Source of the DNA: Candidatus Liptonbacteria bacterium
Lineage (GTDB): Bacteria; Patescibacteriota; Minisyncoccia; UBA6257; 2-01-FULL-56-20
Assembly (NCBI GenBank): GCA_023244935.1
Contig: JAHFLJ010000002.1
Coordinates: forward strand, 1 to 52,854
DNA: 52,854 nt
Direction of reading: 5' to 3'
The translations under genes were made by a program, and so were the position numbers. Shown piece after piece: positions 185 to 6,149 of the stretch (positions are counted from its first letter, which is position 1; every line of letters starts with the position of its first letter). The notes under the pieces were generated by a model. It searched no databases, had not been told where the DNA came from, and worked only from the letters and a program-made list of their open reading frames with translations.

Positions 185-202
185 AGCTTGTATAATAACT
201 TT

Positions 203-349
203 ATGGATGAAATATATGACTTAGGAAATGGCGGTGCTGGCCGGATTAACAAATTGATCTGGGTGGTTGTATTTGCTTATTTATTCCTCATGGTTCGCCT
301 TGTGGAGCTGATGGGCGTTATTCCTACTGATACTTATATTGCTTATTAA
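203..349 (+). CDS. 48-aa small membrane protein, paralogue of 5292..5438
   Basis: ATG at 203, TAA at 347-349. Translation: MDEIYDLGNGGAGRINKLIWVVVFAYLFLMVRLVELMGVIPTDTYIAY, with one hydrophobic helix. It has the same length, near-identical first 17 nt and the same LIW.V..AYL.L..RL..LM..IPTD.Y..Y skeleton as the ORF at 5292..5438. It is below the ORF-track size cutoff. Confidence 0.5.
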   Translation: MDEIYDLGNGGAGRINKLIWVVVFAYLFLMVRLVELMGVIPTDTYIAY

Positions 350-360
350 AATATAGTTAA

Positions 361-693
361 ATGATTTTAAAAATTAAAAAAGATGAGACGGGTGGAGAGA
401 AGTCTGCGGAAATAACGAAACCCAAGAGAAACTTGATGCAGTTTATTTTTTGGGTTGTGGTTGTTGCTGTTTTGATGGTAGGCGGCGCATTTAAAAATAA
501 AATTGATGATGGATTTAAATGTCCAAATGACTACGGATCTGCTGAGGAGTATCTGAATTCGGTTGCCCAGATGATAAAAACGGAAACTGATAAAAATCCG
601 GAAATTAGTTTTGACGAGTTAATGAATTTAAGGAATGAAGAGTTGGACGCGCATAAATGCGAACCATCCAAGTGGATGGATGACGGTAGTTAG
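361..693 (+). CDS. hypothetical N-terminally membrane-anchored protein (110 aa)
   Basis: ORF-track ORF with an ATG start. It has a hydrophobic segment FIFWVVVVAVLMVGGAF followed by a soluble domain with two Cys. No family was recognised. Confidence 0.5.
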   Translation: MILKIKKDETGGEKSAEITKPKRNLMQFIFWVVVVAVLMVGGAFKNKIDDGFKCPNDYGSAEEYLNSVAQMIKTETDKNPEISFDELMNLRNEELDAHKCEPSKWMDDGS

Positions 694-827: not shown

Positions 828-2084
828 ATGAAGATAAAAGAAACTGTACGGCGGGATGGGTTGAGGATTATTAGCTGCAATATACCTACGCAGACTAGGG
901 TTTCGGTTGAAATTTCAGCCTTGGTTGGTTCGGCTTACGATCCGTCACATAAACAGGGCCTATTCCATTATTTTGAACATATGGCTTTTAAAGGCACTAA
1001 AAAGCGAACCGTGAAAGAGATTAGCGATTTTGCCAATAGAAATCTTTTAAATTTCAATGCAAGCACCTCTCGTTTGCGTACAGAATATTACGGAGTTGCG
1101 GTTTATAAAAAATTAACTGAGGCATGTGATGTTATTTCTGATATTTATGTGAATTCGAATTTTCCTACCAAAGAAATTAAAAAAGAAAAAGGTCCAGTTT
1201 TATTGGAAGCTGCGCGAAATAAAGATGGTGACAGTTACTTGTCAGATTTAACTTTGCGCGAGCTGCTTTATGCTAAAAATCCGCTTAGACAATTCAGCAC
1301 CGGAACAGAGGAAGGGATTAAAAGTATTACCAGAAATGATCTTGTCAGGGAAAAAGACAAGTGGTACGTTCCATCGAATACTATTGCGCTTGCCGTAGGG
1401 AGAGTTTCACATTCTGCATTCGTTCGGGAGATTGAAAAACGCGTTCCAATCAACGCTTCCGTTGTAAATCATCCTATTTGGGATAGTGAGTTGAACTTGT
1501 TTCCGGGAGAAGTGCGCAAAGTAATTGAGCGCAAAGACAGGAATCAGTCTACTGTTGTTATGGGTTGCAAGGTTCCTGAAAAGGTCAGCGACCGAATGGA
1601 TGTGGTTGAGGACTTTTTGTTAAGTCTATTAGTGTCAGGCTGGAGCTCTCGTCTTCGTCATGAGGTTCGAGAGAAAAGAGGATTAGCATATTCTGCAAGA
1701 GGAGGAATAACCAGAATGTATGGTTTGGGCGCGTATTTTAGTTCGTTTGTACAAACCAAGCCCGGAAAAGAAAAAATTGTGGAATCTTTGATGCGTAAGG
1801 CAATATTTACCCCGATTACAATCAAGGACAAAAAGATATTCGAAGATACGCGCGAAACTATGAATGATCATATAACCGCAGGGTTTGGAGAAAATTTGGA
1901 CAGATGGGGAGATTTGATATACGAAAAAATTGTAAAAGGCGAGTCGCTGTCCGGGATTGAAAGATATTTCAAAGAGCAACGCGCCATTGTTAATTCTTTG
2001 TCATTAAAAGAGGCCGAGAAAATGAGGAAGGAGCTGTTTAGGCCGGAAAGATTCGCGACGGTTATAATCAAACCGAAAAAATAA
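828..2084 (+). CDS. M16 (pitrilysin/insulinase) family zinc peptidase
   Basis: 418 aa. It has the inverted zinc motif HxxEH in GLFHYFEHMAFKGTKKRT and the typical two-domain M16 length. Confidence 0.85.
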   Translation: MKIKETVRRDGLRIISCNIPTQTRVSVEISALVGSAYDPSHKQGLFHYFEHMAFKGTKKRTVKEISDFANRNLLNFNASTSRLRTEYYGVAVYKKLTEACDVISDIYVNSNFPTKEIKKEKGPVLLEAARNKDGDSYLSDLTLRELLYAKNPLRQFSTGTEEGIKSITRNDLVREKDKWYVPSNTIALAVGRVSHSAFVREIEKRVPINASVVNHPIWDSELNLFPGEVRKVIERKDRNQSTVVMGCKVPEKVSDRMDVVEDFLLSLLVSGWSSRLRHEVREKRGLAYSARGGITRMYGLGAYFSSFVQTKPGKEKIVESLMRKAIFTPITIKDKKIFEDTRETMNDHITAGFGENLDRWGDLIYEKIVKGESLSGIERYFKEQRAIVNSLSLKEAEKMRKELFRPERFATVIIKPKK

Positions 2085-2264: not shown

Positions 2265-2516
2265 ATGCCAGAAACAAAATCTCTTCTAGCAGACTGTGAG
2301 GAAAAGGCCATGGATGGAAACATCAGAAGCTGTCTCAGTGTCACCAGCCCCAACGCTGCTCCTGTCCCCGTAGTCATCAAAGCTGCGCTCTCTCGATTCA
2401 AGCGCGCCAAGATGCTCTGCGATTACAACGACGGCGGCAAGTACGGTGACGGTTACAGCGACGCAAAGTACGGCGACTACAGCGACCACGAAAAATACGG
2501 CGACTCCGGGGATTGA
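2265..2516 (+). CDS. candidate RiPP precursor peptide (83 aa) with a six-fold Tyr-x-Asp C-terminal region
   Basis: ATG 2265, TGA 2514-2516. The C-terminal 30 aa read CDYNDGGKYGDGYSDAKYGDYSDHEKYGDSGD (YND, YGD, YSD, YGD, YSD, YGD; KYGD occurs three times). The ORF is visibly GC-richer than its flanks and sits immediately upstream of a radical SAM/SPASM gene. The start codon is uncertain (Met16 and Met50 are alternatives). Confidence 0.55.
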   Translation: MPETKSLLADCEEKAMDGNIRSCLSVTSPNAAPVPVVIKAALSRFKRAKMLCDYNDGGKYGDGYSDAKYGDYSDHEKYGDSGD

Positions 2517-2522
2517 AACCGT

Positions 2523-2558
2523 GGGGCAACTACAACTAAGCTAGTTGCCCCATTTTTA
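2523..2558 (+). terminator. intrinsic terminator/attenuator between the precursor ORF and the rSAM gene
   Basis: 9-bp stem ggggcaact / agttgcccc with an 11-nt loop, followed by atttttaaa. Confidence 0.6.
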
Positions 2559-2584
2559 AATCCCAAAAGAAAGTAGGTGAGAAA

Positions 2585-3697
2585 GTGAAACCGATTACAC
2601 TTATTGTAAAGCCCGTTTCGACTGGCTGTAATTTGGCCTGCGACTATTGCTATCACGGTGAAGCTAAGAAACGTTTACAGATTCGGCGAATGGGAGACGA
2701 ACTGCTAGAAAAACTGATTTCGGAATTTAGCTTACTCGACCAGCCTAGGAGTAAGTTCCTCTGGCACGGTGGTGAACCGACGCTTGCTGGACAAGATTTT
2801 TTTGGAAAAGCCGTGTCATTGCAGAAGGATTATTTTACTGACGAAAGAGTTGCCATGAATTCAATTCAAACTAATGGCACCACAATCAACGAATCTTGGA
2901 TCAGTTTTTTCAAGATGAACAAGTTTGGCGTCGGTATTAGTTTGGATGGACCAAAAGACGTCCACGACCGACATCGCAGAGATTTCTCCGGCAACGGAAC
3001 ATTTGGAAGAGTAATATCCCGTATTTCTATGATGGCTGCTTCTGGTCTTCACGCAGGAGTTGTTTGCACGGTCACAAAGCCAGTAGTAAACGACGCTAGG
3101 CGGTTACTCCAATTTTTCGTAGAGAATGGCATGACTAAGCTTAACTTCTCTCCGGCCGCAGATCTCTGTGCGGGAGGGATGTTGGCTAAGTATTCTCTTT
3201 CTCCTGAAGAGTGGGGTTATTTTCTCCATGAGCTGTTTGACGCCTGGGTTGAGTTGGGCAATAAGGATGTTGAAATCCAACTCTTCGAAAATTTACTTCA
3301 GGTTGCATTCGGCGGAGAGGCTAAGCTCTGTACTATAAATAGGAACTGCGGCGAATTCATTTCAGTGGACGCCGATGGATTGGTTTACGTTTGTGGCAGA
3401 TTTCTTGGTAATAAGGATTTTTTGGCTGGAGATTTGAAAGATACATCACTCCAGGAAATTCTCAAGAGTTCACGCTGTGAAAAAATTGTTTCTGCGATGA
3501 CCTACCTGCCGCAGAGATGCGAAGATTGCGAAGCGCAGAAATTTTGCAATGGCGGGTGCGCATACTATCGCTTTTTGGACGGAAAACAGCGGAACGATCC
3601 GTATTTCTGTGAGTCCATGAAGGCGGCGACAATTCATATAAAGGAGTTCCTTCTTGGTTGTGGAGCCCAAGATTCAACAATCTGGGCGAAGCCATAG
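2585..3697 (+). CDS. radical SAM/SPASM-domain enzyme, anaerobic-sulfatase-maturase-like
   Basis: GTG start preceded by aggtga. CX3CX2C is present in TGCNLACDYCYHG at the extreme N-terminus, so there is no N-terminal RRE domain. GGEPTLAG, QTNGT and ISLDGPKDVHDRHRR are anSME-like. The SPASM motifs are complete: C-x9-G-x4-C (CGEFISVDADGLVYVC) and CX2CX5CX3C (CEDCEAQKFCNGGC). Confidence 0.9.
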   Translation: MKPITLIVKPVSTGCNLACDYCYHGEAKKRLQIRRMGDELLEKLISEFSLLDQPRSKFLWHGGEPTLAGQDFFGKAVSLQKDYFTDERVAMNSIQTNGTTINESWISFFKMNKFGVGISLDGPKDVHDRHRRDFSGNGTFGRVISRISMMAASGLHAGVVCTVTKPVVNDARRLLQFFVENGMTKLNFSPAADLCAGGMLAKYSLSPEEWGYFLHELFDAWVELGNKDVEIQLFENLLQVAFGGEAKLCTINRNCGEFISVDADGLVYVCGRFLGNKDFLAGDLKDTSLQEILKSSRCEKIVSAMTYLPQRCEDCEAQKFCNGGCAYYRFLDGKQRNDPYFCESMKAATIHIKEFLLGCGAQDSTIWAKP

Positions 3698-3704
3698 TAA
3701 ATAG

Positions 3705-3736
3705 GCGAACTGTCAAAACAGTTCGCTTTTCTTTTT
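3705..3736 (+). terminator. intrinsic terminator after the rSAM gene
   Basis: 9-bp stem gcgaactgt / acagttcgc with a 4-nt loop, followed by ttttcttttt. Confidence 0.7.
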
Positions 3737-3759
3737 AAAATATGCTATTTATTTAAACA

Positions 3760-4278
3760 ATGACTCAAACAGAAGCGACGCCAAAAATTAAGGATATTGT
3801 TTCTAGTTTTAAGACCCAAGGATTGGATGGGGTATTCGAGGCGCTGGAATGGATACATAAAAATCTTAAAAGAGATTTGGATGAAGAATACAAAAGCGAA
3901 CATTTTAGGAAGCGAACTGCAACTGAAATTATAGAAAGCGGAAAGCTTACCGGATGTACAGACTATGCTTTGGTGTTTTTGGCACTGGTTCGAGCAATCG
4001 GAATCGAGGCAAAATACGTAGAGGCCATAGAAACTGATTGGCTGAAAGAAGGCGGAGAACATATAAAAGGACATATTTTTGCGGAAGTAAAAATTGGAGA
4101 TAGCTGGTATATCGTTGACCCTCAAGCCGCAGTCATTAAGGCTTGGTATGGCAGGCGTTATGAGATATATGCGAGAGGCGAGGATTCTTGGGATGTTGGT
4201 ATTAAAAGCTTCGAAGATATAAAGGAAAAATTTAGGATCTACAGAGAAGAATATCTTAGCAATCAAAAAGCCCCCTAG
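3760..4278 (+). CDS. transglutaminase-like cysteine peptidase-fold protein
   Basis: 172 aa. The Cys-His-Asp core signature is present: GKLTGCTDYALVFLALVRAIGIEAKYV (Cys), GHIFAEVKI (His) and WYIVDPQ (Asp). Confidence 0.75.
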   Translation: MTQTEATPKIKDIVSSFKTQGLDGVFEALEWIHKNLKRDLDEEYKSEHFRKRTATEIIESGKLTGCTDYALVFLALVRAIGIEAKYVEAIETDWLKEGGEHIKGHIFAEVKIGDSWYIVDPQAAVIKAWYGRRYEIYARGEDSWDVGIKSFEDIKEKFRIYREEYLSNQKAP

Positions 4279-4349: not shown

Positions 4350-5138
4350 ATGGACTATTTACTTTTACTTTCAGACGAAGAATATCAGGATATCTTCGAA
4401 AAAGGACACGACTCACCTTATACCTTTGAGGTTCTTGGTAATGGCAAGGCAATATTTTACTTTGGGGTAGAGCACAGCAGAGATCCTAGAAATCTACAGT
4501 GGAGTAAGCTGGAATCTTACTGGAATAAATTTGTTAGCGAGACAAACGGAAAACGAATTGTATTTTTGGAAGGACCCGGAGGGTTTAAAGTTGATGGACT
4601 CGCGAGGAATGAAATTATCGAAAAATTTGGAGAATCTGGATTGTTGATGTCTTTCGCCGGATTGGAAAATATTTCTTTTATTTGGCCAAACTTGTCGATG
4701 CAGGAGGAGGCTAAACAGTTAGAGAATGGTTTTGATTCTGATTTGGTGAAATATTATATTTTTGCGCGAAGTGTCGGGGCGTGGCTAAAGATTGGGAATA
4801 TGGGTACTTTTGATGAGGTTATTAGTAAAGCAATTGCATCTACCGCAAAGTGTATTTCTGGAGCGTCTTCAGAGTTTAGTTTTTACGATAGAATTCACGA
4901 GCGAATATTTGGGAATAAGATTACTGTTTCCGAACAGGAGAATTTAATGAAAGCTGCGGTGCCGATTTATCATGATTCGGTTATTAATGATATCGCGCGC
5001 GCTTCAAGCCGACTACGCAATGAACACATTGTTTCAGAAGTAGAAAAATATTGGAATGATGGATATAGCGTATTTATGTTGTTCGGATCCGCTCATGCTG
5101 TAATTCAAGAGAAAGCATTAAAAAGCTTAGGTAAGTAA
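4350..5138 (+). CDS. hypothetical protein (262 aa)
   Basis: Long ATG-initiated ORF followed by junction repeat copy C. No family was recognised with confidence. Confidence 0.55.
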   Translation: MDYLLLLSDEEYQDIFEKGHDSPYTFEVLGNGKAIFYFGVEHSRDPRNLQWSKLESYWNKFVSETNGKRIVFLEGPGGFKVDGLARNEIIEKFGESGLLMSFAGLENISFIWPNLSMQEEAKQLENGFDSDLVKYYIFARSVGAWLKIGNMGTFDEVISKAIASTAKCISGASSEFSFYDRIHERIFGNKITVSEQENLMKAAVPIYHDSVINDIARASSRLRNEHIVSEVEKYWNDGYSVFMLFGSAHAVIQEKALKSLGK

Positions 5139-5158
5139 ATTTGATGTCAGCGGAGAAA

Positions 5159-5258
5159 TAAAAAAAATCGCACAGGGGTGCGATTTTTGGATTTTCAGAA
5201 CAATCAGAACAAGGCAAGGGCTCTTTGGAGGTAGAGTTCGGCCATTCGCCAGTTGATT
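5159..5258. repeat. junction repeat copy C: terminator hairpin plus a 17-codon relic of the 3' end of gene 6213..6977
   Basis: Identical hairpin at 5164..5187. The reverse complement of 5205..5258 reads INWRMAELYLQRALALF-stop, compared with the live end IDWRMAELYLQRAFSLF-stop. Confidence 0.8.
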
Positions 5259-5291
5259 GAGAATCTTTGAGAATAGATTAATATTAGGAAT

Positions 5292-5438
5292 ATGGATGAA
5301 ATATGTGAAGAAAAAAGGGGTAGGTTTGATAGAATGGACGCATTAATTTGGATAGTTACATATGCTTATTTACTTCTTATATTTCGTCTTCTTCAGTTGA
5401 TGAGCATTATACCGACCGATAGGTATTTTGTTTATTAA
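5292..5438 (+). CDS. 48-aa small membrane protein, paralogue of 203..349
   Basis: ATG 5292, TAA 5436-5438. Translation: MDEICEEKRGRFDRMDALIWIVTYAYLLLIFRLLQLMSIIPTDRYFVY. It has the same architecture and position (first gene of its cassette) as 203..349. Confidence 0.5.
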   Translation: MDEICEEKRGRFDRMDALIWIVTYAYLLLIFRLLQLMSIIPTDRYFVY

Positions 5439-5483
5439 TAAATTGCAGAAGCAAGCAGTAGCTACTCTAAATAAATAACAATT

Positions 5484-6149
5484 ATGAAAATCGAATTTAT
5501 CGAAGATGTTAGCCGAGATGTAGAAAACTGGCAAAAGTCACTGACAAGTCGCAGTAACTATGTTTCGGATCCATCAAAACGGATACCGGAGGATGTCGAT
5601 AAAGAGAGGCTGGGTGACGCCGAGTATTTAAAACAATATCTATTCGATAATTTTTATCAGACGGGAAAAGTTGCTTCATTTAAGAATTGGTTAATCGCAA
5701 ATACTAATTCCGCGGAGATTCAGGGTGATATTGAGGATTTAATGCAGAGGAAGTTTAAGACTGCAGATATTACAGCATATATAACTGTTTTTGGGCTCGG
5801 GCGTTACGAACCTGCAAACAACGTCTTTTTTGTAATTTTCACACGGCTTGAGGAAAGGTATAAAATAAAAATTTCCAATATTTATCATGAGCTGATGCAT
5901 TTTTTGGTTCACGAATATTTTTGGGAAGAGTGTAAAGCGTCCGGGTTGTCGGAAGCGCAGACTCACGACTTGAAAGAATCTTTGACTGTTCTGTTGAATC
6001 CAATTTTAGAAAAGAGAGGATTGCCCTTGGACGAGGGTTATCCCAAACATCAGGAACTTCGAGCTAAGTTGAAAGCTCTATGGGAAGAGAAGAACTGGAA
6101 GTTTGAGGATTTTTTGAAAAAGGTTTTAGAATTAAAGTTGGTTAGTTAA
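5484..6149 (+). CDS. hypothetical protein with an HExxH zinc-metallopeptidase-like motif
   Basis: 221 aa. It carries a single HELMH in NIYHELMHFLVHEYF. No further family assignment is possible by eye. Confidence 0.5.
   Translation: MKIEFIEDVSRDVENWQKSLTSRSNYVSDPSKRIPEDVDKERLGDAEYLKQYLFDNFYQTGKVASFKNWLIANTNSAEIQGDIEDLMQRKFKTADITAYITVFGLGRYEPANNVFFVIFTRLEERYKIKISNIYHELMHFLVHEYFWEECKASGLSEAQTHDLKESLTVLLNPILEKRGLPLDEGYPKHQELRAKLKALWEEKNWKFEDFLKKVLELKLVS

Follow-up and report, generated by a model that had tools for sequence, protein, structure and literature searches.

Does the short Tyr- and Asp-rich open reading frame (ORF) in front of a radical SAM gene in this Patescibacteria genome encode the substrate of a RiPP pathway, and if so, which chemistry acts on it? 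An initial annotation of the window (the whole stretch of DNA analyzed, 52,854 nucleotides) had proposed a precursor with repeated Y-x-D triplets, a radical SAM/SPASM enzyme, and a transglutaminase-fold Cys-His-Asp protein, with an M16 peptidase and an HExxH protein nearby. All of these were recovered, and the locus reads as follows.

828..2084, plus strand: M16 peptidase, a separate transcription unit (own terminator hairpin, 2106-2131)
2265..2516, plus strand: precursor peptide gene, 83 aa as called, C-terminal end CDYNDGGKYGDGYSDAKYGDYSDHEKYGDSGD
2361..2405, plus strand: conserved leader segment P33-R47 (PVPVVIKAALSRFKR; alignments A2 and A3)
2424..2504, plus strand: core with six Tyr-x-Asp units (sequence and 50-sequence alignment A3)
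2523..2557, plus strand: terminator-like hairpin and T-run in the gap between the precursor and radical SAM genes, 10-bp G+C-rich perfect stem GGGGCAACTA / TAGTTGCCCC
2585..3697, plus strand: radical SAM/SPASM maturase, 370 aa, PF04055 and PF13186
3703..3738, plus strand: second terminator-like hairpin and T-run, in the gap between the radical SAM and transglutaminase-like genes, 11-bp stem
3760..4278, plus strand: transglutaminase-fold Cys-His-Asp enzyme, 172 aa, PF01841
4350..5138, plus strand: TraB/PrgY/GumN-like protein, 262 aa, possible accessory or bystander
5484..6149, plus strand: HExxH protein, 221 aa, H135-E-L-M-H139, no Pfam family, possible accessory

Precursor gene and peptide family

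When all six frames of the 52.8-kb window are scanned, the gene at 2265..2516 is the sole ORF with at least three Y.D matches per 35 aa. It carries the six Y-x-D units first noted (Y54ND, Y60GD, Y64SD, Y69GD, Y72SD, and Y78GD), with KYGD occurring three times, and it is indeed GC-richer than its surroundings, at 54% against 41.3% for the window (GC3 of 0.63 against 0.40). All of its Tyr codons are TAC (6/6, versus 31% in the background), and the same GC and codon trend is seen at 13 of 15 homologous loci. No tandem repeat was found in the gene at the DNA level, and no Rfam element was found near the locus. The ATG at 2310 (Met16), which is preceded by a GAGGA Shine-Dalgarno sequence 7 nt upstream, may be a better start and would give a peptide of 68 aa.

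Alignment of the core (A3, 50 sequences) shows Y60, Y64, and D71 to be invariant and D62, G63, D66, Y69, and G70 to be at least 90% conserved. The leader segment P33-R47 fits the family motif (P)-x-V-[IL]-x-x-A-[ILM]-x-R in alignments A2 and A3 and is the predicted recognition element for the radical SAM enzyme. The alignments reveal no obvious cleavage motif at the leader/core junction.

Searched on its own for homologues by word matching, the 83-aa peptide returned only itself, and the peptides lie outside all Pfam and NCBIfam models. The family was uncovered through the neighbors of radical SAM homologues, followed by a profile search. It comprises at least 74 distinct peptides of 45 to 116 aa, which answers the concern that the small ORF might not be conserved in related genomes, and 73 of 74 carry three to six Tyr-x-Asp units. 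The core Y-x-D-G-Y-G-D-x-x-Y-G-D is invariant alongside the conserved leader motif. Across the 74 peptides the Y-x-D spacing is fixed, with spacers of 0 to 3 residues between units, and YxD is far more frequent than DxY (n = 294 versus n = 81); the C-terminal tails (DPDPTxx, YGEGPxG) are conserved as well. Among 1.84 billion proteins searched, just 36 cluster representatives match the family, the viral contigs searched gave no match, and the named relatives all belong to the Patescibacteria/CPR. An earlier publication of exactly this family is possible.

Two candidate modification sites had been put forward, the YxD triplets and the Cys residue just upstream of them. A thioether RiPP (ranthipeptide, sactipeptide, or QhpD-like Cys-to-Asp) formed through that Cys would fit the presence of the residue ahead of the repeats in the window peptide (C52) and in the Y-x-C-H-[TS] subtype, the weak matches of the enzyme to the PapB, QhpD, and SCIFF models, and the established ability of QhpD to join Cys to Asp or Glu carbons. 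Such a product is nevertheless very unlikely, as only 42 of 74 peptides contain a Cys and most members of the large YGEGPxG subtype lack it, at most one Cys stands against three to six YxD units, and the radical SAM enzyme has no RRE domain; the system thus falls outside the sactipeptide/ranthipeptide/QhpD types. Because the Cys is not conserved, thioether formation was rejected as the defining chemistry. Of the two proposed sites, the YxD triplet stands as the one that defines the family and the Cys does not.

Hairpins between the genes

The hairpin and T-run described between the precursor and enzyme genes has a stem at 2523-2532 / 2542-2551, followed by ATTTTT. The RNA folds with a minimum free energy of -24.9 kcal/mol and a z of -6.2; none of 200 shuffled sequences was as stable. 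A strong hairpin lies directly 3' of the precursor stop codon in 11 of 12 homologous loci, with no conservation of its sequence.

The second hairpin of the window, which separates the radical SAM gene from the transglutaminase-like gene, is a point against the RiPP cassette reading given below.

Radical SAM/SPASM enzyme

The 370-aa product of the next gene, annotated from its CX3CX2C and SPASM cysteines as a radical SAM enzyme without an RRE, exceeds the cut-offs of both PF04055 (E 1e-15, 58.7 bits, cut-off 29.5) and PF13186 (SPASM; E 5e-7, 30.3 bits, cut-off 21.5). These scores and its Cys motifs place it in the radical SAM/SPASM superfamily. The cluster motif C15-x3-C19-x2-C22 and the eight auxiliary-cluster cysteines (249/255/270/325 and 312/315/321/342) are invariant in 19 to 120 homologues. 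There is no extra N-terminal domain, and since just 14 residues precede the cluster motif, there is no room for an RRE.

The best NCBIfam model is that of anSME (TIGR03942), at 297.3 bits below its cut-off of 349.45, followed by DynA, TIGR04083, DarE, YhhB, DarW, GrrM/OscB, PapB, FxsB, and AmcB, most of which are cross-linking peptide maturases. The anSME family is also the closest in sequence (203 bits to 4K37, of anSMEcpe entries PDB 4K36-4K39), and the enzyme shares with it the same length, the lack of an RRE, the CX3CX2C motif, and all eight auxiliary-cluster cysteines. In Foldseek comparisons, the AF2 model (pLDDT 90.9) matches anSMEcpe (TM 0.87-0.89) and leader-bound ChlB, a triceptide maturase (TM 0.83). 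ChlB diverges at the region equivalent to Asp277, and the SPASM domain of the present enzyme is anSME-like, with eight cysteines, rather than ChlB-like.

The enzyme departs from anSME at two sites, where H24 and C270-G271-R272 replace Y24 and C276-D277-F278. We take Asp277 and Tyr24 of anSMEcpe to be catalytic residues. Their roles are reportedly those described by Goldman et al. in 2013 (PNAS). The signature (D277 to G, F278 to R, and Y24 to H or N) occurs at 16 of 16 YxD loci and at 0 of ~70 other homologous loci. Position 24 of the Gly-Arg enzymes is H, N, or, at one locus (L088), Y; the other homologues have D277 with mostly Y24. In a neighbor-joining tree the Gly-Arg enzymes fall within one clade of 38, and because seven members without Gly-Arg lie among them, two of these in unrelated genomic contexts, strict monophyly is not claimed.

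Both the top HMM match and the top structural match are thus to anSME, as would be expected of an ordinary anSME that makes formylglycine on a sulfatase, the small ORF being a chance or unrelated neighbor. This explanation is hardly credible. The TIGR03942 score of 297 falls short of the cut-off, Gly occupies the position of the catalytic Asp277, and the small ORF is conserved at every orthologous locus, where a YxD peptide with a leader and a transglutaminase-like gene accompany the enzyme. As the initial annotation had stated, there is no sulfatase nearby: neither a sulfatase motif (C/S-x-P-x-R) nor a homologue was found across the 52.8 kb of the window or at the YxD loci. Twelve homologues of the enzyme do have sulfatase neighbors; these are more distant and keep the anSME catalytic Asp. 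Sulfatase maturase identity was rejected on score, on the Asp277-to-Gly replacement, and on context. The enzyme is a descendant of the sulfatase maturases.

Conservation of the three genes

Had the orthologues been consistently adjacent to sulfatase genes and never to YxD ORFs, the RiPP proposal would have fallen; instead, a YxD-type small ORF adjoins the radical SAM gene at 12 of the 12 closest distinct loci examined. The radical SAM gene is present in 14/14 loci and the transglutaminase-like gene in 13/13 loci with enough sequence. A DNA motif scan of metagenomes gave 35 matches, of which 21 are family-type small ORFs and the other 14 are unrelated long ORFs of Gly/Tyr/Asp low complexity. 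The predicted co-occurrence of YxD-repeat ORFs with orthologues of the enzyme was borne out here too, with the radical SAM gene adjacent to 20 of the 21 family-type peptides and the transglutaminase-like gene found wherever the contig suffices. At L120, a single exception, the precursor and transglutaminase-like genes occur with no radical SAM gene next to them.

Two variant loci are informative on the unit itself. In L006, from a Patescibacteria genome, the enzyme with the Cys-Gly-Arg signature and the transglutaminase-like gene are kept and the units are Y-x-C and Y-x-N in place of Y-x-D; since these end in Cys or Asn and Gly-Arg is retained, Arg272 is not simply an Asp-binding residue. In L049, the units W-S-D, H-T-D, and W-G-D stand beside a more distant radical SAM enzyme with a C-D-G signature, and no transglutaminase-like homologue is detectable at that locus. 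Both variants are what an aromatic-x-X3 rule predicts.

The association of YxD peptide, radical SAM gene, and transglutaminase-like gene is far beyond chance. The three-gene cassette is real and conserved and is known so far only from CPR bacteria; this conserved synteny supports the proposal of a RiPP family in a CPR-type genome.

Transglutaminase-like enzyme and neighboring genes

The 172-aa protein scores well above the cut-off of PF01841 (Transglut_core; E 4e-14, 53.2 bits, cut-off 23), and the triad C66/H105/D120, of the Cys-His-Asp type originally noted, is invariant in nine orthologues, so that it belongs to the transglutaminase-like cysteine protease superfamily. No signal peptide is visible in the protein. 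AF2 modeled it from the single sequence with low confidence (pLDDT 60), and the proteases and isopeptidases that are its Foldseek neighbors confirm the general fold only; the best match in a PDB profile search had an E value of 0.09. LapG, TgpA, PeiP, TglA (9CRN), and lasso-peptide B2 likewise carry a papain-like Cys-His-Asp triad on a transglutaminase core. Lasso-peptide B2 removes a leader and is a precedent for a transglutaminase-fold leader peptidase, although the present protein matches PF01841/PF04473 rather than PF13471 and has no RRE partner. On account of its fold, invariant triad, and strict co-occurrence, it is proposed as a putative leader peptidase.

Of the neighboring genes, that for the M16 peptidase has a homologue adjoining the cassette at only one locus (L001) beyond the window, two loci in total. 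As it is found at one other locus only and has its own terminator, the M16 peptidase is probably outside the core cassette, and it was rejected as a core component. At L007, L091/L095, L099, and L101 (five loci with the window), a homologue of the HExxH protein is encoded no more than ~2 kb from the cassette; the motif is retained in four of five, and the protein may be an accessory of the cassette. Homologues of the TraB/PrgY/GumN-like protein flank other anSME-like radical SAM genes in L062 and L070, and the one in L062 falls narrowly short of the PF01963 cut-off (E 7e-6). ABC exporters are present in some loci.

Proposed pathway and alternatives

The product of the cassette is most likely a cross-linked peptide natural product. 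The reading that we consider probable is a RiPP cassette in which leader-guided radical SAM cross-linking installs one three-residue cyclophane per aromatic-x-Asp unit and is followed by processing by a cysteine protease. The small gene would encode the precursor, with its leader motif (P)xV[IL]xxA[ILM]xR and an acidic core of three to six Tyr-x-Asp units, and the hairpin 3' of its stop codon, together with the C-ending Tyr and Asp codons, would keep the precursor in excess of the enzyme. The anSME-derived enzyme, with three [4Fe-4S] sites and no RRE, would cleave SAM as its relatives do and abstract hydrogen from the beta-carbon of a side chain in the bound peptide, the proposed target being the Asp of each unit. 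The resulting Asp carbon radical would attack the Tyr ring two positions before it and close each YxD unit into a three-residue cyclophane through a C-C bond (-2 Da per unit), comparable to those of the triceptides and to the Trp-x-Asn link of dynobactin. In anSME, oxidation to formylglycine is driven with an Asp; replacement of Asp277 by Gly-Arg would fit a switch from oxidation to cross-linking, and also an acidic target. The cytoplasmic transglutaminase-fold enzyme would then cut off the leader and/or the conserved tail by thiol proteolysis, and the HExxH protein and the ABC exporters of some loci may finish and export the product.

Like the triceptide systems (comparison set XyeB, GrrM/OscB, FxsB, YhhB, and AmcB; ChlB, PDB 9GM3), the cassette has repeated aromatic-x-X3 units behind a leader and an RRE-less radical SAM/SPASM gene directly downstream, and the 3-CyFE HMMs match the enzyme at E 1e-33 to 1e-47. 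It differs from the curated 3-CyFE families in scoring 116-162 bits against cut-offs of 310-450, in its invariant YxDGYGDxxYGD core, which has no curated model, and in its hosts, so far Patescibacteria only. We know of no described triceptide cluster with a co-conserved transglutaminase-fold enzyme. DynA and DarE are anSME-like enzymes; each bonds an aromatic ring to the beta-carbon of the residue two positions further on, in Trp-x-Asn for dynobactin and in Trp-x-Lys for darobactin. Their HMMs are the second and sixth best, at 235 bits (NF041298, cut-off 450) and 169 bits (NF038005, cut-off 650), respectively, and the enzyme is thus a member of neither family. The precursors are unrelated, lacking a W-N-W-S-K-S-F or dynobactin-type core; dynobactin and darobactin carry one or two links on a decapeptide or heptapeptide, against three to six repeated units here, and their hosts are Proteobacteria.

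Counted against the cyclophane reading is that the enzyme lies under the curated cut-off of every characterized cyclophane maturase model. Its anSME-like SPASM domain, the Gly-Arg signature kept at L006, the arrangement at L120, the missing cleavage motif between leader and core, and the weak model of the transglutaminase-like protein weigh on the same side.

The same cassette and substrate could serve another radical chemistry on the YxD units, such as a Tyr-O-to-C-beta ether, a C-N link, Asp beta-hydroxylation or oxidation, epimerization, or inter-unit D-x-Y links; taken jointly, these are appreciably less probable than cyclophane formation, though far from negligible. The enzyme is under the cut-off of every characterized family, darobactin contains an ether link, DarE-type relatives forming ether as well as C-C links, and D-G-Y is also recurrent, the latter because the core is YxDGYGD. 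Against these alternatives stand the invariant Y-x-D spacing, compared with 0 to 3 residues from D to the next Y, and the related loci in which Trp or His replaces Tyr, which disfavor chemistry at the phenol oxygen.

A further alternative treats the peptide as a multi-core precursor, from which the transglutaminase-fold, HExxH, and M16 proteases would excise each cross-linked YxD as a tripeptide-derived small molecule (a cyclophane, quinone cofactor, or metal chelator in several copies) by analogy with PQQ and mycofactocin. In PQQ biosynthesis, PqqE makes the Glu-Tyr link, a bond of an established type between an acidic side-chain carbon and the Tyr ring, and the product is excised with PqqF/M16. 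Here, too, a radical SAM/SPASM enzyme accompanies a small peptide with Tyr and an acidic or neighboring residue and nearby peptidases (compare PqqA/PqqE/PqqF and MftA/MftC/MftE), the units are repeated three to six times with short variable spacers, up to three protease-like genes surround the cassette in the window, and the M16 protein is weakly PqqF-like (TIGR02110, E 8e-6). We nonetheless regard excision of multiple cores as unlikely, and a PQQ- or mycofactocin-like pathway to a Tyr-Asp-derived cofactor or chelator specific to Patescibacteria as somewhat more doubtful still. M16 is adjacent in two loci only and HExxH in five; there is no PqqD/RRE partner, E-x3-Y motif, or C-terminal GVY; no conserved gene represents the further tailoring enzymes that PQQ and mycofactocin require; and the conserved tails DPDPTxx and YGEGPxG suggest a defined peptide product. 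If true, an excised-core pathway would mean a small molecule made ribosomally by organisms of very reduced biosynthetic capacity.

We infer that the YxD peptide is the substrate of the enzyme and that cross-linking, with the three-residue cyclophane as the favored type, acts on its YxD units. The enzyme clade illustrates cleanly how, in nature, the anSME scaffold has been turned to a new substrate. Its two-site signature (Gly-Arg, with Tyr24 mostly His or Asn), which predicts genomic context perfectly in ~85 loci, gives annotation an immediate means of telling peptide maturases from true sulfatase maturases. If a Tyr-Asp cyclophane is confirmed, the triceptide toolbox would gain a multi-ring scaffold of acidic character along with a processing enzyme of the transglutaminase fold. 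To our knowledge, the Patescibacteria/CPR, with their tiny genomes, have almost no characterized natural products, and a conserved, easily testable cassette is therefore a direct experimental entry point.

A conserved cassette encoding YxD-repeat peptides

The cassette comprises three genes in the window, as follows:

2265..2516, + strand: precursor ORF, 83 amino acids, C-terminal end CDYNDGGKYGDGYSDAKYGDYSDHEKYGDSGD
2585..3697: radical SAM (rSAM) gene, 370 amino acids, PF04055 and PF13186 (SPASM)
3760..4278: transglutaminase-core gene, 172 amino acids, matching PF01841 and PF04473

The six Tyr-x-Asp (YxD) units and three KYGD occurrences that the initial annotation reported for the 83-amino-acid ORF are present, and a scan of all six frames showed it to be the sole ORF in the window with at least three Y.D within 35 residues. 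No tandem repeat was found in the DNA at this ORF, and so the YxD repetition is confined to the protein level. An internal ATG at position 2310 has a stronger Shine-Dalgarno sequence (GAGGA 7 nt upstream), which suggests that the real precursor may start there and comprise 68 amino acids.

A search with the window peptide as a single sequence retrieved no match beyond itself. Co-occurrence of YxD-repeat ORFs with rSAM orthologues had been named as a check, and a small ORF with the same core indeed adjoins every rSAM homologue looked up (36 to 58% identity). It lies directly upstream of the rSAM gene in most loci; at locus L007, it precedes the transglutaminase-like gene and is encoded on the opposite strand. 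A Transglut_core gene is found downstream wherever the contig of the rSAM homologue extends. When all flanking ORFs from 14 loci were clustered, every one of the 14 proved to contain the rSAM, and the transglutaminase-like gene was found in 13 of 13, as one contig ends early. A profile built from 13 peptides retrieved 53 clusters among 5.8 billion proteins, and one built from 50 peptides and run with no word filter gave only 36 matches among 1.84 billion cluster representatives; the peptide family is real but small.

Three to six YxD units, with a mode of four, occur in 73 of 74 distinct peptides. An alignment of 50 sequences shows no variation at Y60, Y64, and D71 and at least 90% conservation at D62, G63, D66, Y69, and G70, which results in the family core Y-x-D-G-Y-G-D-x-x-Y-G-D. 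Across the 74 peptides, the Y-to-D spacing is constant and the spacer between units ranges from 0 to 3 residues, with 294 YxD against 81 DxY occurrences. The leader segment (P)xV[IL]xxA[ILM]xR is common to the family, which presents three subtypes: YNDGG... with a DPDPTxx tail, YNDGG... with a YGEGPxG tail, and Y-x-C-H-[TS]-x-x-P-YGDGYGD. In most members (P0131, P0133, and P0142, among others), the YxD core is succeeded by one of two conserved C-terminal tails, (E/G)DPDPTxx or YGEGPxG. Neither is present in the window's peptide, in which the six units are accompanied by a tail unlike that of any other family member.

In a reciprocal test, metagenome contigs were scanned for DNA encoding YxDGYGDxxYGD, and 21 of the 35 matches proved to be family-type small ORFs, the remaining 14 being unrelated low-complexity proteins. 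The rSAM gene adjoins 20 of these 21 ORFs, and the transglutaminase-like gene is present at every family-type locus with enough contig. The only family locus with no adjoining rSAM is L120 (L120:3278-4092), which has the precursor, the transglutaminase-like gene, and an S1-domain protein in place of the expected convergent rSAM. We are highly confident that this is a genuine, conserved rSAM-dependent peptide-modification cassette.

Hairpins, codon bias, and predicted expression of the precursor

The hairpin and T-run described between the precursor and rSAM genes are real, with a stem at 2523-2532/2542-2551 and a folding energy of −24.9 kcal/mol (z = −6.2). A second hairpin with a T-run lies at 3703-3728, 3′ of the rSAM gene. 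Among the loci compared, a strong hairpin of variable sequence stands immediately 3′ of the precursor stop in 11 of 12. The peptide ORF is also GC richer than its surroundings, as first described (54% GC versus 41.3% in the window; GC3 of 0.63 versus 0.40), and its Tyr codons are all TAC (6/6, versus 31% in other genes). Precursor genes exceed their own locus in GC in 13 of 15 cases, with TAC and GAC enriched relative to the adjoining rSAM gene (P = 0.002 and 0.005, respectively). Abundant precursor ahead of less expressed enzymes is the classical logic of RiPP operons, and the hairpin together with the codon and GC features fits this pattern, the expression ratio being deduced from these features.

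The radical SAM enzyme and its altered active site

The rSAM contains the cluster cysteines C15, C19, and C22 and eight further invariant cysteines, in agreement with the cluster motif and full SPASM domain initially assigned to it. Each of these eight has its one-to-one counterpart in the two auxiliary clusters found in anSMEcpe, an anaerobic sulfatase-maturating enzyme (anSME) of solved structure. The N terminus leaves no space for an RRE domain, which likewise had been described as absent. The best HMM is the anSME model TIGR03942 (297 bits versus a cutoff of 349), followed by DynA, two more anSME models, TIGR04083, DarE, YhhB, DarW, GrrM/OscB, PapB, FxsB, and AmcB, and against none of these maturase models does the score reach its cutoff. 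Comparison with sequences of solved structures gave 203 bits for anSMEcpe, 106 for ChlB, and 73 for CteB. The AF2 model, obtained with 19 clade members as input (pLDDT of 90.9), superimposes on anSMEcpe with a TM score of 0.87 to 0.89 and on the ChlB-leader complex with a TM score of 0.83.

In anSMEcpe, Asp277 comes right after the cluster ligand Cys276 and is reportedly the catalytic base in formylglycine formation. In the window rSAM, this residue is replaced by Gly271, followed by Arg272, giving Cys-Gly-Arg (C-G-R) where anSMEcpe has Cys276-Asp277-Phe278, and Tyr24 is replaced by His24. A survey of 120 homologues and all fetched loci found C-G-R in 16 of 16 loci with a YxD-type peptide, among them the variant locus L006 and L015, a distant locus from WWE3, and in 0 of some 70 remaining loci, the majority with C-D-H and Tyr24. 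Fifteen of the 16 YxD-type loci have H or N at residue 24; the other (L088) has Y. Sulfatase genes adjoin 12 of the homologues that contain the Asp; the window, where none had been noted near the cassette, and the YxD loci yielded no such gene. The active-site change and the lack of sulfatase genes at YxD loci indicate that, as judged from sequence, the rSAM is an anSME descendant that switched function.

Two relatives lacking Gly-Arg that nest near the rSAM clade were checked, and their contexts are unrelated. The non-Gly-Arg relative P0034 (C-D-N) adjoins a Trypco1 protein and a giant trypsin-nSTAND-WD40 protein (L130:1-1973 and 2501-3670), a context that resembles a conflict system. About 25 Firmicutes/Chloroflexi “anSME” homologues (C-D-H) are preceded at once not by a sulfatase but by a conserved protein of ∼150 to 230 amino acids (...LLGIFGNDD...HRYDGAGHGFWYY...) that looks dienelactone hydrolase-like on sequence alone (L010, L012-L014, L017, L022, L024, L027-L030, L033, L036, L038, L041, L043, L046, L052, L054-L056, L075, and L076).

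The transglutaminase-like protein

The assignment of a transglutaminase-fold Cys-His-Asp protein is borne out by the triad Cys66-His105-Asp120, which is invariant in nine orthologues. No signal sequence was found in this protein and no conserved Gln or Lys in the peptide cores. Taken with the strict co-occurrence, these features point to a thiol hydrolase that would act on the peptide inside the cell. Its most likely role would be to strip the leader and/or tail, like the B2 proteases of lasso peptides, and we consider the chances that it is the processing protease to be evenly balanced. Loci of the YGEGPxG subtype have the precursor and transglutaminase-like genes as a codirectional pair and the rSAM gene convergent. 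The structural neighbors of a low-confidence model (TglA, LapG, TgpA, PeiP, and arylamine N-acetyltransferases) confirm the fold only.

Genes neighboring the cassette

Further genes of the window, and the members of one family at other loci, are as follows:

188..349 and 5292..5438, + strand: paralogous small hydrophobic ORFs, 53 and 48 amino acids, 50% identical
4350..5138, + strand: TraB/PrgY/GumN (Tiki-type)-like protein, 262 amino acids, directly after the transglutaminase-like gene
5484..6149, + strand: HExxH protein, 221 amino acids
L007:7415-8164; L091:1785-2486, − strand; L099 ∼5044-5658; L101 ∼5335-5763: other members of the HExxH family

The upstream M16 peptidase initially listed as a neighbor is a real domain match, but it has its own hairpin terminator at its end; elsewhere, such a gene stands next to the cassette only at L001. 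Homologues of the HExxH protein occur close to the cassette at four other distinct loci. This family (221 to 250 amino acids, found at five loci no more than ∼2 kb from the YxD cassette, HExxH in four of the five) shows an invariant KE..TVLLN / H.ELR block, belongs to no Pfam family, and may be an accessory peptidase. ABC exporters are found at the flanks of two loci.

A homologue of the 262-amino-acid protein (L062:483-1250) matches PF01963 just short of the cutoff (E value of 7e-6), and this and another homologue (L070:8183-8425) adjoin other anSME-like rSAM genes on Taylorbacteria and Saccharibacteria contigs. The two hydrophobic ORFs share ...LIW[VI]V..AYL.L..RL..LM.[VI]IPTD.Y..Y, each sits just 5′ of another gene (361..693 and 5484..6149), and a search of the fetched loci gave no homologue. 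Other genes beside YxD cassettes include a second radical SAM gene in divergent orientation, accompanied by a small ORF (...GIRCGNPWDQGHWANRH; L092:1179-1337 and 1378-2478, both − strand), and RiPP-type genes, namely an MvdD-type ATP-grasp with an S41 peptidase (L003:286-3097) and a YcaO gene (L089:6038-7098). At L007, an 81-amino-acid ORF (2939-3184, + strand) resembles a detached C-terminal SPASM portion from another rSAM (CxxCxxxxxCxxxC) and is possibly a gene remnant.

Proposed modification chemistry

The YxD triplets, or a cysteine upstream of them, had been put forward as modification sites. The YxD part is supported by the conservation of the units in nearly all peptides (73/74), and conservation in the core is limited to Tyr, Asp, and Gly. 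The cysteine is unsupported as a defining site: only 42 of the 74 peptides contain one and most of the YGEGPxG subtype lack it, and therefore a thioether cannot define the family. The modification sites are probably the YxD units.

Enzymes of the anSME-like branch take hydrogen from a side-chain Cβ, and the cross-linking members couple this carbon to the ring of an aromatic residue two positions earlier, as in the aromatic-X-X3 cyclophanes of triceptides, Trp-x-Asn of dynobactin, and Trp-x-Lys of darobactin. Locus L006, which retains the Gly-Arg enzyme and the transglutaminase-like gene, has the units Y-x-C and Y-x-N. Other Patescibacteria loci with a peptide encoded ahead of an Asp-keeping anSME-like rSAM gene are as follows:

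L049:2405-2551 and 2616-3698: units W-S-D, H-T-D, and W-G-D
L031:848-991: units H-x-D/N
L035:387-530: units H-x-D/N

The rSAMs of these three loci are more distant homologues (C-D-G, C-D-S), and no transglutaminase-like homologue was detectable there. The fixed Y-x-D register, together with the units of L006 and of these loci, fits the aromatic-x-X3 rule, and the same observations argue against chemistry dependent on the phenol oxygen. We propose one cyclophane per YxD unit, in which the Tyr ring would be joined to the Asp Cβ; for this Tyr-Asp(Cβ) link, our confidence is middling. The change from an acidic catalytic residue to Gly-Arg would be consistent with an acidic target being accommodated and the oxidation step given up, with Arg272 not strictly tied to Asp, as L006 shows.

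Relationship to known systems and host range

The cassette would work like triceptide- or dynobactin-type systems. As judged by curated models and public names, it is outside every curated family: none of 50 peptides matches a Pfam or NCBIfam model, and public annotations read simply “hypothetical protein” or “radical SAM protein.” The named source organisms are all Patescibacteria (Paceibacterota, Azambacteria, WWE3, and “Patescibacteria group”), and the YxD motif was not found in viral contigs. The aromatic-x-Asp/Asn peptides of L049, L031, and L035 include ...GWSDHTDWGDKSYDVWSQSV and ...HSDGPGHNNHSGDSDHENS, and at L049, a 352-amino-acid HExxH protein is encoded downstream. The peptides of these three loci suggest that CPR have a broader range of peptide families that are unexplored.
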